DNA of 64,000 nucleotides from Escherichia coli O127:H6 str. E2348/69. Its GTDB lineage: Bacteria; Pseudomonadota; Gammaproteobacteria; Enterobacterales; Enterobacteriaceae. The stretch's first letter is position 1. Every line of letters begins with the position of its first letter. The stretch lies in NCBI RefSeq assembly GCF_000026545.1, contig NC_011601.1, one strand, 5' to 3'. The notes under the pieces were generated by a model. It ran no database searches, was not told where the DNA came from, and saw only the letters and a program-made list of their open reading frames with translations. Positions 2,674 through 40,621 of the stretch are shown one piece after another. The translations under genes were made by a program, and so were the position numbers.

Positions 2674-3639
2674 ATGAATACTGTCGGCACGCCGTTGCTA
2701 TGGGGCGGATTCGCTGTTGTTGTCACCATTATGCTGGCTATCGACCTGTTGTTGCAGGGGCGTCGTGGGGCACATGCCATGACCATGAAACAGGCTGCGG
2801 CCTGGTCGCTGGTCTGGGTGACGCTGTCGTTACTGTTTAACGCCGCTTTCTGGTGGTATCTGGTGCAAACCGAAGGTCGCGCCGTTGCCGATCCACAAGC
2901 ACTGGCCTTTCTCACGGGTTATCTGATTGAGAAATCGCTGGCGGTCGATAACGTCTTTGTCTGGCTGATGTTGTTCAGCTATTTCTCTGTTCCGGCGGCA
3001 TTACAACGCCGCGTGCTGGTGTATGGCGTGCTTGGGGCGATTGTTCTGCGTACCATCATGATCTTCACCGGTAGCTGGCTGATTTCACAGTTCGACTGGA
3101 TCTTGTATATCTTCGGCGCATTCCTGCTGTTTACCGGCGTGAAGATGGCGCTCGCTCATGAAGATGAATCAGGCATTGGCGACAAGCCGCTGGTGCGCTG
3201 GCTACGCGGTCATTTGCGCATGACCGACACCATCGACAACGAGCATTTCTTTGTGCGTAAAAATGGTTTGTTGTATGCCACGCCGCTGATGCTGGTGCTG
3301 ATTCTGGTGGAGTTGAGCGACGTGATTTTCGCCGTGGATAGTATTCCGGCTATCTTCGCCGTGACCACCGATCCGTTTATTGTGCTGACCTCAAACCTGT
3401 TTGCGATCCTCGGCCTGCGTGCGATGTATTTCCTGCTGGCAGGTGTGGCAGAGCGTTTCTCGATGCTCAAATATGGTCTGGCGGTGATTCTGGTGTTTAT
3501 CGGTATCAAGATGCTGATTGTCGACTTCTACCATATTCCGATCGCCGTCTCGCTGGGCGTGGTGTTTGGCATTCTGGTGATGACGTTTATTATCAACGCC
3601 TGGGTGAATTATCGGCATGATAAGCAGCGGGTAGAATAA
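2674..3639 (+). CDS. alx: TerC-family inner membrane protein Alx (putative Mn2+ exporter)
   Basis: 321-aa ORF, multi-pass membrane protein; synteny. Confidence 0.9.
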
Positions 3640-5522: not shown

Positions 5523-6767
5523 ATGACTACGCAACATTCACCGGGGCTATTCCGGCGTCTGGCTCATGGCAGCCTGGTAAAACAAATCCTGGTCGGCCTT
5601 ATTCTGGGGATTCTTCTGGCATGGATCTCAAAACCCGCGGCGGAAGCTGTTGGTCTATTAGGTACTTTGTTCGTCGGCGCACTGAAAGCCGTTGCCCCCA
5701 TCCTGGTGTTGATGCTGGTAATGGCATCTATTGCTAACCACCAGCACGGGCAGAAAACCAATATCCGCCCTATTTTGTTCCTCTATCTGCTGGGCACCTT
5801 CTCTGCTGCTCTGGCCGCAGTGATCTTCAGTTTTGCCTTCCCTTCTACCCTGCACTTGTCCAGTAGCGCGGGTGATATTTCGCCGCCGTCAGGCATTGTA
5901 GAAGTGATGCGCGGGCTGGTAATGAGCATGGTTTCCAACCCCATTGACGCGCTGCTGAAAGGTAACTACATCGGGATCCTGGTGTGGGCAATTGGCCTCG
6001 GTTTCTCACTGCGTCACGGTAACGAGACCACCAAAAACCTGGTCAACGATATGTCGAATGCCGTCACCTTTATGGTGAAACTGGTGATTCGCTTCGCACC
6101 GATCGGTATTTTTGGTCTGGTTTCTTCTACCCTGGCAACCACCGGTTTCTCCACGCTGTGGGGCTACGCGCAACTGCTGGTGGTACTGGTTGGCTGTATG
6201 CTGCTGGTGGCGCTGGTGGTTAACCCACTGCTGGTATGGTGGAAAATTCGTCGTAACCCGTTCCCGCTGGTGCTGCTGTGCCTGCGCGAAAGCGGCGTGT
6301 ATGCCTTCTTCACCCGCAGCTCTGCGGCGAACATTCCGGTGAATATGGCGCTGTGTGAAAAGCTGAATCTGGATCGCGATACCTATTCCGTTTCTATTCC
6401 GCTGGGAGCCACCATCAATATGGCGGGCGCAGCAATCACCATTACCGTGTTGACGCTGGCTGCGGTTAATACGCTGGGTATTCCGGTTGATCTGCCCACA
6501 GCGCTGCTGTTGAGCGTAGTGGCTTCTCTGTGTGCCTGTGGCGCATCCGGCGTGGCGGGGGGGTCTCTGTTGCTGATCCCACTGGCCTGTAATATGTTCG
6601 GTATTTCGAACGATATCGCCATGCAGGTGGTTGCTGTCGGCTTTATTATCGGCGTATTGCAGGACTCCTGTGAAACCGCGCTGAACTCGTCAACTGACGT
6701 GCTATTCACTGCGGCAGCTTGCCAGGCGGAAGACGATCGTCTGGCAAATAGCGCCCTGCGTAACTAA
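5523..6767 (+). CDS. sstT: Serine/threonine:Na+ symporter
   Basis: 414-aa ORF, polytopic membrane protein, recognised sequence. Confidence 0.95.
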
Positions 6768-6770
6768 TAC

Positions 6771-7322
6771 TTAGCCCCTTTCGTCTACGGCGGAAGGGGT
6801 TTTCTCCACTTTAAACGGATCAATTCCCCTTCTCTGCATACGCCAGAAACGAATGATATTCAGGCCATTCATCAGCAGAAAACTGCCTTCAATCATCGTG
6901 CCGCCTATCGACCCCGCCCAGAAGTTGTGAATCACCCAGCAACACGTTGAAAACCACATTACGCAGCGCATGGTCAGCCCTTTACAGCGGAACAGCGCCC
7001 AGGTACTGACAATCGTGCCGATTACCGGCAATAGTTCGACAGGATGATGGAACTTCGCGAGGCCAATTCCGCCAGTCAGCACAATAAAAATCGCCATTAC
7101 CCATAAGCTGCGCGTGCGTAAGGTAATCAATGTACGAATGGCATTAAGGATGGCACTGGCACCGGCAGGATAGGTGCCCAGAAGAAAAAAATGTACGCCA
7201 ATAACGGCGCTATAGACCGAAAGTTGCTTTTTGAAGCGACGTTCGTCACGATTGAAAAATGTTGTGATACCAATCAGAAAGGCGATGACACCCACGCCCT
7301 GGGCCAGCCAATACGCGGTCAT
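6771..7322 (-). CDS. ygjV: Inner membrane protein YgjV
   Basis: 183-aa hydrophobic ORF; synteny between sstT and uxaA. Confidence 0.85.
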   Translation of the reverse strand: MTAYWLAQGVGVIAFLIGITTFFNRDERRFKKQLSVYSAVIGVHFFLLGTYPAGASAILNAIRTLITLRTRSLWVMAIFIVLTGGIGLAKFHHPVELLPVIGTIVSTWALFRCKGLTMRCVMWFSTCCWVIHNFWAGSIGGTMIEGSFLLMNGLNIIRFWRMQRRGIDPFKVEKTPSAVDERG

Positions 7323-7404
7323 GATAAATCCTTAGCAGGTATGGAAAAGCAAACGGCGCTTCACATTATGAAACGCCGTTTTTTATTAACAACTCATTTC
7401 GACT

Positions 7405-8892
7405 TTATAGCGTTACGCCGCTTTTGAAGATCGCCAGTTCGCGGAAGTCGTTACGCTCGTTACAGGTTTGCTTACCGTTGGCAAACTCAACGATGGTGTC
7501 GATAAATTCTTCCAGCAACTGCGGCATCGCTTTACCGTGGATCAGCTGACCCGCGTCAAAGTCGATCCAGTGTTTTTTCTTCGCCGCCAGTTCGCTGTTG
7601 GTGGCGATTTTCACCGTCGGTACAAATCCGCCGTACGGCGTGCCGCGACCGGTACTGAACAGCACCATATGGCAGCCCGCACCCGCCAGGGCGCTGGTCG
7701 CTACGGCATCGTTACCCGGCGCACTTAACAAGTTCAGCCCCGGCGTTTTCAGACGCTCGCCGTAACGCAGCACGTCAACCACGACGCTGGAACCCGCTTT
7801 CTGGGTACAGCCAAGTGATTTGTCTTCCAGCGTGGTGATACCGCCCGCTTTGTTCCCCGGCGATGGGTTTTCATAGATCGGCTGGTCATGGGCAATAAAG
7901 TACTGCTTGAAGTCATTGACCATGGTGACCAGTTTTTCAAACGTTGCTTCGTCGCGACAATGGTCCATCAGCAACTGCTCTGCGCCAAACATCTCCGGCA
8001 CTTCGGTCAGTACGGTAGTACCGCCGTTAGCAATCACGTAGTCAGAGAAACGCCCCAGCATCGGGTTAGCAGTAATACCAGAAAGACCGTCAGAACCACC
8101 GCACTCCAGACCAAACTTCAGTTCGCTGAGTTTGCCCGGCTCGCGTTTATCGTTGCGCATCACGCTATACAGCTGATGCAAATGCGCGATCCCGGCCTCG
8201 ATTTCATCATCCTGCTGTTGGCAGATCATGAAATGAACGCGTTCAGGATCGATATCGCCCAACGTTTCACGGAATGCGGCAACCTGGTTATTTTCGCAAC
8301 CCAGACCAATCACCAGCACTGCGCCCGCGTTCGGGTGGCGCACCATGTTTTGCAGCATGGTGCGAGTATTGATGTGATCGTCGCCCAGTTGTGAGCAGCC
8401 GTAGGTGTGGCTGAAGAGGAACACGCCGTCGGTACCTTCAGCGTTGTTGGTCTCTTTCAGGAAACGATTTTGGATCTGCCGCGCGATGCCGTTGACACAG
8501 CCCACGGTTGGCAGGATCCACAGCTCATTACGCACCCCGACATCGCCGTTAGCGCGACGATAGATCTGCACTTCACGATCTGCCGCTTGCGCAGGCAGAT
8601 TCTGAAAATCAGGTTGATAGCGATACTGATCCAGATCGCTCAGATTCGTGCGCGTATTGTGGGCGTGAACGTGTTCCCCCGCCGCAATATCCGCCAATGC
8701 ATAACCAATCGGCAGGCCATATTTAATGACGTTGGCCCCTTTTGCGATATCCGTTAACGCAAATTTATGTCCACGAGCAACATCCTGGCGCAGCGTAACA
8801 GTCTGGTTATCGACACTGACTTCTGTGCCTTCAGCCAAATCCGCTAAAGCAACCGCGACGTTATCCAGCGCATGGATCTTGATGTATTGCAT
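7405..8892 (-). CDS. uxaA: Altronate dehydratase
   Basis: 495-aa ORF; recognised sequence; operon with uxaC. Confidence 0.95.
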   Translation of the reverse strand: MQYIKIHALDNVAVALADLAEGTEVSVDNQTVTLRQDVARGHKFALTDIAKGANVIKYGLPIGYALADIAAGEHVHAHNTRTNLSDLDQYRYQPDFQNLPAQAADREVQIYRRANGDVGVRNELWILPTVGCVNGIARQIQNRFLKETNNAEGTDGVFLFSHTYGCSQLGDDHINTRTMLQNMVRHPNAGAVLVIGLGCENNQVAAFRETLGDIDPERVHFMICQQQDDEIEAGIAHLHQLYSVMRNDKREPGKLSELKFGLECGGSDGLSGITANPMLGRFSDYVIANGGTTVLTEVPEMFGAEQLLMDHCRDEATFEKLVTMVNDFKQYFIAHDQPIYENPSPGNKAGGITTLEDKSLGCTQKAGSSVVVDVLRYGERLKTPGLNLLSAPGNDAVATSALAGAGCHMVLFSTGRGTPYGGFVPTVKIATNSELAAKKKHWIDFDAGQLIHGKAMPQLLEEFIDTIVEFANGKQTCNERNDFRELAIFKSGVTL

Positions 8893-38173: not shown

Positions 38174-39745
38174 ATGGCCAACATCGAAATCAGACAAGAA
38201 ACGCCAACTGCGTTTTATATAAAAGTTCACGACACAGATAATGTGGCAATTATTGTTAATGATAATGGCCTGAAAGCAGGAACGCGTTTTCCGGATGGGC
38301 TGGAATTAATTGAACATATTCCCCAGGGGCATAAAGTCGCATTGCTGGACATTCCGGCTAATGGTGAAATTATTCGTTATGGCGAGGTGATTGGTTACGC
38401 CGTGCGCGCAATCTCACGCGGAAGCTGGATCGACGAATCAATGGTTGTACTACCGGAAGCGCCGCCGTTACATACGCTGCCACTGGCAACCAAAGTCCCG
38501 GAACCCTTACCGCCGCTGGAAGGATACACCTTTGAGGGCTATCGCAATGCCGATGGCAGCGTGGGCACCAAAAACCTGCTCGGCATCACCACCAGCGTCC
38601 ACTGTGTGGCAGGCGTGGTGGACTACGTAGTAAAAATCATTGAACGCGATCTGCTACCGAAATACCCGAACGTCGATGGCGTGGTGGGGCTGAATCATTT
38701 GTACGGTTGTGGCGTGGCGATTAACGCACCCGCGGCAGTTGTACCTATTCGTACCATTCACAATATTTCGCTGAACCCTAACTTTGGCGGCGAAGTAATG
38801 GTGATTGGTCTGGGTTGTGAAAAGTTGCAGCCTGAACGCCTACTGACTGGAACGGATGATGTGCAAGCTATTCCAGTAGAAAGCGCCAGCATTGTCAGTT
38901 TGCAGGATGAAAAGCATGTCGGTTTTCAGTCCATGGTCGAGGATATTTTGCAGGTCGCCGAACGCCATTTGCACAAGCTGAATCAACGGCAGCGAGAAAC
39001 CTGTCCGGCTTCAGAACTGGTTGTCGGCATGCAGTGCGGTGGCAGCGATGCGTTTTCTGGCGTAACGGCAAACCCGGCGGTTGGGTATGCGTCTGATCTA
39101 TTGGTGCGCTGCGGCGCAACGGTGATGTTCTCAGAAGTCACAGAAGTGCGTGACGCGATCCATCTGCTGACACCACGCGCAGTGAACGAAGAGGTCGGCA
39201 AACGGCTGCTGGAGGAGATGGAGTGGTACGATAACTATCTCAATATGGGAAAAACCGACCGCAGCGCCAACCCTTCGCCGGGGAACAAGAAAGGCGGTCT
39301 GGCAAATGTGGTGGAGAAGGCACTCGGCTCCATTGCTAAATCGGGTAAAAGTGCAATTGTTGAAGTGCTGTCGCCCGGCCAACGCCCGACTAAACGCGGA
39401 TTAATTTACGCCGCGACGCCAGCCAGCGATTTTGTCTGTGGCACGCAACAGGTGGCTTCGGGTATCACCGTGCAAGTGTTTACGACCGGTCGTGGTACGC
39501 CGTACGGCCTGATGGCGGTACCCGTCATTAAAATGGCGACCCGCACCGAGCTGGCGAACCGCTGGTTTGATTTAATGGATATTAACGCGGGCACTATCGC
39601 TACCGGCGAAGAAACCATTGAAGAAGTGGGCTGGAAGTTGTTCCACTTTATTCTCGACGTCGCCAGCGGGAAGAAGAAAACCTTCTCGGATCAATGGGGA
39701 CTGCATAACCAGCTGGCGGTGTTTAACCCGGCACCGGTGACCTGA
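38174..39745 (+). CDS. garD: Galactarate dehydratase
   Basis: 523-aa ORF, divergent from garPLRK. Confidence 0.95.
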
Positions 39746-39761
39746 TAATTCAATTCGTATT

Positions 39762-39790
39762 ATGCCCGATAGCACACGTTTATCGGGCAT
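39762..39790. terminator. Hairpin between convergent garD and agaR (possible bidirectional terminator)
   Basis: atgcccgat-agcacacgtt-tatcgggcat. Confidence 0.5.
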
Positions 39791-39796
39791 ATTGAG

Positions 39797-40621
39797 TCAC
39801 AGCGAAGACGCGTGATCCCCGACCAGAATCACTTCAACTCCAGCCTTTCGCAGTCCTTCCAGACTATCCGCAGGAATGCCTTCATCAACAATGATCATGT
39901 CGATACGTTGAGTATCAATGATCTTATGTAAACTGGAACGATTGAACTTACTGGAATCGGTGACCACGATGATCCGTTCCGCAACTTCGCACATCCGACG
40001 GTTTAAACGGGCTTCATCTTCATTATGCGTGCTGACGCCGCGCTCCAGATCGATCGCATCTACACCAAGAAACAGCATATCGAAGTGGTAATTTTGCAGC
40101 GATTGCTCAGCCTGATCACCGTAAAAAGATTGCGACTGACGGCGCAAATGCCCCCCGGTCATCAGCAGCTCAACGCCTTCCGCTTCCAGCAACGCATTAG
40201 CCACGTTCATACCGTTGGTCATCGCAATTACGTCAGTGTGCTTGCGCATCAGACAAGCAATCTCAAAAGTGGTGGTCCCGGAGTCGAGGATCACCCGATG
40301 ACCAGGCTGAATCAACTCAACGGCAGCTTTCGCAACGCTGCGTTTCATCGCGGTGTTCAGCGCGCTTTTATCTTCCACTGATGGCTCGACTGACGGCGTT
40401 GTGCTATCGCAGATCAACGCGCCACCATAGGCACGCACAGCGATCCCCTGCTTTTCCAGAAACGCCAGATCGTTGCGGATCGTCACAGTAGATACACCAT
40501 ACAACGCCGATAGATCATTAACTTGCACACTTCCTTGCTGGCGCAGGCGTTGAATGATCTGCTCTCGTCGCTCACTGGTGCCTGTCACTCGCTTCTCGCC
40601 TGAAGCGTCGGTATTACTCAT
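39797..40621 (-). CDS. agaR: DeoR-family repressor of the aga/kba regulon
   Basis: 274-aa ORF with N-terminal HTH; divergent from kbaZ. Confidence 0.9.

Follow-up and report, generated by a model that had tools for sequence, protein, structure and literature searches.

The convergent genes garD and agaR of Escherichia coli O127:H6 str. E2348/69 are separated by a spacer of only 51 bp that lacks the prlF-yhaV toxin-antitoxin module present at this site in K-12, and the junction is probably an unoccupied, ancestral-type allele of the garD-agaR site that has been retained in this lineage. Comparison of junction sequences supports the view that the module is an insertion and that the junction is not the scar of an in-situ deletion. 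PrlF(SohA)-YhaV is a type II toxin-antitoxin module of K-12, as given in the description by Schmidt et al. (2007, J Mol Biol 372:894). Coordinates refer to the window, that is, the whole 64-kb stretch of E2348/69 DNA that was analysed.

Absence of the module is evident at several levels. No coding potential for PrlF or YhaV was detected anywhere in the window by tblastn with K-12 queries (E<=1e-5); neither a YhaV-family toxin gene (PF11663) nor a PrlF antitoxin gene (PF15937) upstream of one has a match in the window, and the spacer contains no ORF. Nothing in the spacer resembles the 148-bp garD-prlF spacer that bears the promoter and the palindromic site TAATAATGCATTTGCATTA in occupied alleles, and a regular-expression search for hairpin H (ACATGGCCTTAGNGCCATGT), a conserved feature upstream of prlF, finds it in occupied loci only and not in the window. 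Both the ORFs and the tblastn searches thus bear out the first-pass annotation, which had reported from the sequence alone that prlF-yhaV is missing between the garD stop (39745) and the agaR stop (39797). The gene order that it gave for K-12 is also correct: MG1655 reads garD, 148 bp, prlF, yhaV, 54 bp, agaR, with both intergenic spacings tabulated identically in PMC5120126, and a direct adjacency of garD and agaR, which would have contradicted it, is not seen in MG1655.

The garD-agaR junction and its breakpoints

The two genes face each other tail to tail, with a single hairpin between them (Table 1). Galactarate dehydratase is identified by the NCBIfam model TIGR03248 (939.6 bits against a cutoff of 730.85) and AgaR by NF040755 (463.6 bits, cutoff 260). 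The garD gene is annotated in the E2348/69 and UTI89 records, an 825-bp agaR is annotated in UTI89 and ATCC 11775, and 1,801 bp spanning the site are 100% identical to NZ_CP059840.2 (E2348/69). Elsewhere in the window, on the minus strand at 7426-8886, another coding region bears a distant resemblance to GarD (32% identity over amino acids 15-517) and is presumably a UxaA-family paralogue.

Table 1. Features at the garD-agaR junction, in window coordinates
Feature	Position	Strand	Description and basis
garD (galactarate dehydratase)	38174..39745	+	523-aa ORF, left flank; stop TGA 39743-39745
Spacer from garD stop to hairpin	39746..39761		16 nt; position of the module in occupied alleles, from alignments
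Allele-specific segment	39746..39815		70 bp in place of the 1,006-bp prlF-yhaV segment of K-12
Hairpin, ATGCCCGATA / 9-nt loop / TATCGGGCAT	39762..39790		Fold energies and z-scores; stem also in E. whittamii and the island copy
agaR	39797..40621	-	274-aa ORF; stop 39797-39799; NF040755 and NF007316
15 nt coding HASSL, extra C-terminal residues	39800..39814	-	Missing in K-12-type agaR

The remark that the spacer holds nothing besides a hairpin is upheld, in that one stem-loop is present and no Rfam, promoter or terminator match accompanies it: an Rfam scan of 39500-40000 at E<=1 returned 0 matches, and a consensus scan of the 51 bp found 0 terminator-like or promoter-like sites. In a 71-nt context the hairpin folds at -22.8 kcal/mol on the plus strand and -21.2 kcal/mol on the minus strand (z-scores of -3.7 and -3.3), and 0 of 200 shuffled sequences matched this stability. 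A U-tract (T-run) is absent on both strands, so that the structure, its strong stem notwithstanding, falls outside the definition of an intrinsic (Rho-independent) terminator. It is probably a shared 3′-end stem-loop of the garD and agaR transcripts, as predicted from its position and fold, and presumably marks or stabilises the 3′ ends of both. A 72-aa ORF on the minus strand (39572-39790) overlaps the 3′-end of garD and the hairpin, and was taken as spurious.

The breakpoints were set by base-by-base comparison with MG1655. The garD and agaR flanks are collinear with, and 97-99% identical to, those of occupied E. coli alleles up to the junction; homology with K-12 stops 1 base past the garD stop and restarts at 39816. 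Within the 70-bp segment that is specific to the window allele, the hairpin stem alone has a counterpart in the occupied allele, and the outer stem ATGCCCG...CGGGCAT is common to the hairpins of both alleles, where it lies exactly 6 nt from the agaR stop. The restart point lies inside agaR, which encodes 274 aa in the window and 269 aa in K-12. The protein ends in VGDHASSL in the window, VGEHASSL in Escherichia whittamii, VGELASSL in a second, island-borne copy of the region that is present in other E. coli genomes (see below), and VGE in K-12, and removal of exactly 15 nt, in frame, from the E. whittamii agaR 3′-end gives the K-12 sequence. The junction is therefore less clean than the first-pass annotation had it, and with agaR ending differently in the two alleles the argument built on its cleanness carries little weight.

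Empty and occupied alleles in Escherichia and related genera

With regard to other genera, a GarD scan of species-representative genomes gave at least 80 loci, with E. whittamii and E. albertii among the matches listed; Escherichia fergusonii, E. marmotae, E. ruysiae and clade I lie outside this sample. Among these listed matches, garD stands beside agaR without the module in at least 12 other enterobacterial genera. Module-free arrangements among the matches listed include those of E. whittamii, Kluyvera, several Citrobacter, Enterobacter and Salmonella arizonae, and also of Klebsiella indica, Trabulsiella, Phytobacter, Pluralibacter and others. The spacers in these module-free loci are short and carry hairpins, and such a layout is the usual one in Enterobacteriaceae. 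The junction of E. whittamii is orthologous to that of the window, with the same stem, the same TCACAGCGAAGACGCGTG tail and an AgaR of 274 aa.

An additional copy of the region, here called the island fossil, is found in about 448 other E. coli genomes, for example NCTC86 (contig L089, 8068-10696) and likewise contig L090. Its setting is an IS-rich island with malX, a MalY-like gene and an enterotoxin gene as neighbours, and it consists of a frameshifted garD pseudogene (garD′), an intact 825-bp (274-aa) agaR and remnants of kbaZ and kbaY. The fossil agaR is 97-99% identical to the resident E. coli agaR and the fossil garD′ is 88% identical, a contrast that suggests decay plus possible gene conversion. 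The fossil junction is empty and of the E. whittamii type, and it shares the hairpin stem and the 15-nt agaR tail with the window, whose 70-bp segment can be aligned over its full extent with both of these junctions. The distance from the garD stop to the hairpin is 27 nt in both E. whittamii and the island copy versus 16 nt in the window, and overall the window junction differs from these two versions by an 11-nt indel and about 8-10 substitutions. An origin of the window allele by gene conversion from the island fossil was considered and rejected on account of this indel, the substitutions and the 88% identity of garD′. Two divergent AgaR proteins (P0128 and P0132) that were considered as candidates from other Escherichia turned out to lie on contigs of ordinary E. 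coli (L101 and L102), in low-coverage assemblies with indels.

Within E. coli the census was based on 5,426 complete genomes. DNA of prlF-yhaV is present in 5,162 of them (~95%), an empty junction of the window type occurs in 187, in a single copy each and with 100% identity over 75 bp, and 77 genomes have neither the module nor this junction. By a second count the junction is interrupted in 5,156 genomes (5,344 - 188), in agreement with the 5,162 that carry module DNA; junction-spanning genomes number 188 and 75-bp probe matches 187, a difference of one genome. Since interrupted junctions and modules are nearly equal in number and the whole genome collection holds only 18 surplus module copies, genomes with the empty junction appear to lack the module elsewhere as well, judging from genome counts and DNA-level similarity. 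The suggestion in the first-pass annotation that the module is an insertion specific to the K-12 lineage does not survive this census, as the module is found in 95% of complete E. coli genomes and has diverged to the same extent as its flanks.

Carriers of the empty allele include UTI89, S88, APEC IMT5155, BEN2908, the type strain ATCC 11775 and O127:H6 strains, all from one part of phylogroup B2, namely EPEC1 and the ST95 complex. The eight carriers that were sampled represent three flank haplotypes, 0.4-0.9% apart. In published work yhaV is reported as missing from the B2 strain HM605 (PMC7232551), and prlF-yhaV behaves as an accessory gene pair among urinary isolates (PMC7500147). A different kind of absence is seen in E. 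coli SCPM-O-B-8794 (contig L080, 6572-7890), where garD is followed by hairpin H and a truncated prlF (amino acids 11-87), and then by rsmI, lpoA, yraN, diaA and dolP; this allele is the result of a deletion that begins within prlF and takes in yhaV, the entire aga cluster and the yra genes.

The same eight empty alleles were compared with three occupied E. coli alleles over 3.9 kb and 3.0 kb of flank. Flanks of the empty alleles cluster together and are ~99% identical to B2-type occupied alleles up to the junction. Among these 11 E. coli, no fixed difference between empty and occupied alleles was found within ~400 bp of the junction, and no donor tract or haplotype block around it separates retention from re-acquisition of the empty state. 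In the 5′ part of agaR (40496-40574), 11 SNPs within 80 bp set four sampled empty alleles apart from K-12 and three occupied alleles, and at 10 of the 11 positions the empty alleles agree with E. whittamii. E02, an occupied B2 strain, has only 3 differences in this bin, which marks the patch as a mosaic product of recombination without strict linkage to the indel.

Structure, age and mobility of the module

The occupied allele may be an empty site of the Escherichia type into which the module was set, downstream of the garD stop and ahead of the native hairpin. Two sequence comparisons lead to this reading, namely the in-frame lack of 15 nt by which the K-12 agaR end differs from that of E. 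whittamii and the alignment of the K-12 yhaV-agaR spacer with hairpins of empty sites. The latter spacer aligns to the E. whittamii-type hairpin with a score of 22, which is reached by 2 of 1,000 dinucleotide shuffles, and to the island-type hairpin with a score of 20 (3 of 1,000 shuffles), and control spacers from other genera score 10-14. The window's own hairpin aligns weakly with the K-12 spacer, at a score reached by 94 of 1,000 shuffles, and the hairpin homology is statistically modest, a point that counts against the favoured explanation. The insert differs by 2.6% between K-12 and B2 strains and its flanks by 2.4-3.0%; the equality of these values implies that the module was present by the time the phylogroups split, and the module would then be about as old as that split within E. 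coli.

The left part of the module, starting immediately downstream of the garD stop, is conserved between E. coli and Pseudocitrobacter. This conserved part consists of 26 nt, hairpin H (ACATGGCCTTAGNGCCATGT followed by a T-run), the palindrome TAATAATGCATTTGCATTA and a TATAAT box, and hairpin H is absent from the empty sites of related genera. A conserved left end of this kind fits a transfer between genera in which garD may have served as a homology arm. The module proteins of Pseudocitrobacter and E. coli are 77% identical, AgaR 82% and KbaZ 70%; the divergence of the module proteins is thus similar to that of AgaR and KbaZ, and these values would also be compatible with an insertion of greater age and many subsequent losses. 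In Pseudocitrobacter the module is bracketed by a 26-33-nt direct repeat that contains a strong terminator-like hairpin, the two copies being 939-940 bp apart. One contig (L091) has 26-nt repeats with H at 2538-2563 and 3477-3502 and occupies a garD-agaR site as in E. coli, and another (L009) has repeats at 6596-6628 and 7536-7568 and, as right-hand neighbours, a PfkB kinase gene and a different DeoR regulator gene. This bracket may be the footprint of the original insertion at a terminator.

Movement between species by way of the flanks is illustrated by E. albertii NBRC 107761 (contig L004, ~6465-7500), in which a tract with sharp bounds is nearly identical to B2-type E. coli, with 5 mismatches in ~900 bp. 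Within the tract, which takes in ~107 bp at the 3′-end of garD as well as the insert with prlF-yhaV, there are 0-2 mismatches per 100 bp; outside it there are 10-16 mismatches per 100 bp in garD and 7-20 in agaR. On this mismatch profile, the E. albertii module is a recent import from E. coli by homologous recombination.

Other settings of the family were also encountered. YhaV-family genes occur on 328 plasmids and beside phage genes; those on plasmids, mis-filed chromosomes aside, are less than 60% identical, and the phage collection contains one distant Vibrio match to YhaV. Contigs of ~90 kb from Salmonella enterica and Citrobacter braakii (L094-L098) encode a YhaV of 65-67% identity together with PrlF, directly downstream of phage antirepressor (ANT) and Phage_pRha genes, which suggests carriage by a prophage or phage-plasmid. 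Between the enoyl-CoA hydratase gene and acnB of Erwinia aphidicola (contig L099, 2000-4400) there is a PrlF-YhaV homologue of 66% identity. A ~280-nt direct repeat, 92-93% identical, flanks this homologue, as do 36-nt repeats (GTTCACTGCCGAGCAGGCAGCTTAGAAA...) at ~60-nt spacing that resemble type I-F CRISPR repeats, and a 70-nt copy of the yhaV 5′ region lies upstream. The locus has the appearance of a module duplicated in part and in tandem, together with a CRISPR-like array.

Retention, replacement and relation to known systems

The window has what is expected of an empty site: its flanks are collinear and orthologous to those of occupied alleles, and an orthologous empty junction exists in both E. 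whittamii and the island fossil. It also has none of the residues of a deletion scar, with no remnant of prlF, yhaV, their spacer or H, as opposed to the SCPM-O-B-8794 allele, which keeps H and a prlF fragment. The lack of H also makes it unlike the product of recombination between two flanking copies of H, which would leave one behind. In a likely sequence of events the incoming unit, made up of ~26 nt, terminator-like H, an operator-like palindrome accompanied by a -10 box, prlF and yhaV, would have been inserted downstream of the garD stop and ahead of the native hairpin of an empty site of the Escherichia type; recombination with garD as the left homology arm is the most likely route. The donor would be a lineage that already had the module beside garD, and Pseudocitrobacter has it at the same site. 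Entry would predate the separation of the E. coli phylogroups, after which the occupied allele would have risen to ~95% of E. coli and later recombined into E. albertii, and the empty allele would have survived in E2348/69, UTI89, S88, ATCC 11775 and others, with nothing replacing the module there. Under such a history, recombination in the flanks would have erased linkage within the B2 subgroup.

Some observations speak against retention. The empty allele is in the minority and its flanks are clustered and B2-like, so that a strictly vertical tree favours an occupied ancestor, and the lack of fixed differences within ~400 bp is unlike what a very old, tightly linked polymorphism would show. 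The first of these lends some weight to a secondary reversion, in which the ancestor of this B2 subgroup was occupied and homologous recombination swapped the 1,006-bp segment for the 70-bp empty one; the allele would then be ancestral in type, yet its lineage would have lost the module. Reversion, a possible though doubtful course of events, would accommodate the confinement of the empty allele to 187 of 5,426 genomes with a completely identical junction, flanks that are only ~1% from those of B2-type occupied alleles, and an insert seemingly as old as the phylogroup split. Homologous recombination is moreover able to move this segment, as in E. albertii, and empty templates exist within E. 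coli in the form of the island fossil in ~448 genomes. Set against this is the want of a known donor, given the ~8-10 substitutions and the 11-nt indel by which the E. whittamii and island junctions differ from that of the window. The adjoining 400 bp contain neither SNPs of a donor type nor fixed differences, which means that the donor would have to be a B2-like E. coli that was already empty. Had the island copy been the template, garD in the window would have acquired the decayed 3′-end of the island gene (88% identity), and it has not.

A simple in-situ deletion of prlF-yhaV in the E2348/69 lineage, whether illegitimate or between flanking repeats, is highly improbable and is effectively excluded by the junction sequence, even though deletion is the commonest route by which small accessory modules are lost and a true deletion allele, beginning inside prlF, exists in E. 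coli SCPM-O-B-8794. A deletion could not give rise to the features that the window has in common with E. whittamii and the island copy, namely the specific hairpin and the agaR tail of 15 nt; nothing is left of the 148-bp garD-prlF spacer, H, prlF or yhaV, and K-12 has no flanking direct repeats that could mediate the event. Even less credence is due to an artefact of assembly or sampling, with the module collapsed out of the sequence or located elsewhere in the genome. Such errors are a general possibility only, and an identical junction recurs in 187 independently finished genomes, the 5,162 genomes with the module match the 5,156 interrupted junctions with 18 extra copies, and the absence of yhaV from HM605 was reported independently (PMC7232551). 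Of the earlier proposal that the difference between the two strains reflects an insertion and not a loss, the insertion and the exclusion of a deletion scar stand, and the part that is less secure is its dismissal of loss altogether, a reversion by replacement having a chance of its own.

Retention of the empty allele thus remains the favoured reading, and a more far-reaching version of it can be put forward only tentatively, as it is rather unlikely to hold in full. In this version prlF-yhaV would be a selfish, recombination-borne module that entered Escherichia once, at the garD-agaR terminator, and has since crossed into E. albertii; its rise to ~95% of E. coli would be due to replacement of occupied by empty alleles being disfavoured, because loss of the labile antitoxin would free the toxin. 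If so, strains of the ST95 complex and EPEC1 would be the last pre-invasion carriers, with a polymorphism that is trans-species in type with E. whittamii, and the duplicated terminator hairpin of Pseudocitrobacter would preserve the footprint of the original insertion mechanism.

Irrespective of its history, the window allele is a case of ordinary, recognised presence/absence variation, and horizontal insertion of the module has already been published. According to work cited in PMC5120126 (Ramisetty & Santhosh 2016, FEMS Microbiol Lett 363:fnv238; Fiedoruk et al. 2015), the endoribonuclease toxin-antitoxin modules of K-12, prlF-yhaV included, are horizontally transferred intergenic inserts that are variably present. 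The present analysis adds incrementally to this with the exact breakpoints, three versions of the empty allele, the import tract in E. albertii and the hairpin-bracketed module of Pseudocitrobacter. E2348/69 and extraintestinal strains of the ST95 type are naturally without one of the ten classical endoribonuclease toxin-antitoxin modules of K-12, which is useful to bear in mind when results on persistence or stress are extrapolated from K-12 to such pathogens. The natural empty site, with its slightly longer AgaR, is also a comparator for engineered deletions of the module, which may exert polar effects on agaR (PMC5120126). Collectively, the E. albertii tract, the Pseudocitrobacter module and the fossil garD′-agaR offer a small example of the spread of a toxin-antitoxin module by flank homology, and the side observations leave current views standing.

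Compared with known systems, the window has the same chromosomal site as PrlF-YhaV of K-12 and is without both genes, the promoter/operator and the upstream H, and it is accordingly an empty site rather than a variant of the module. The minimal transferred unit defined in PMC5120126 comprises the promoter/operator and the two ORFs, with the terminator absent, whereas the unit found to be conserved here has the terminator-like H at its left end and, in Pseudocitrobacter, on both sides. At the garD-agaR site no target-site duplication, transposase or integrase was found. Known empty and occupied alleles of small insertions have, like those described here, collinear flanks, sharp boundaries and empty outgroups, and cross between species by recombination in the flanks. 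Unlike in such simple pairs, the occupied garD-agaR allele is more than the empty one with an insert added: the two are also set apart by the in-frame indel of 15 nt in agaR and by divergence of the hairpin.
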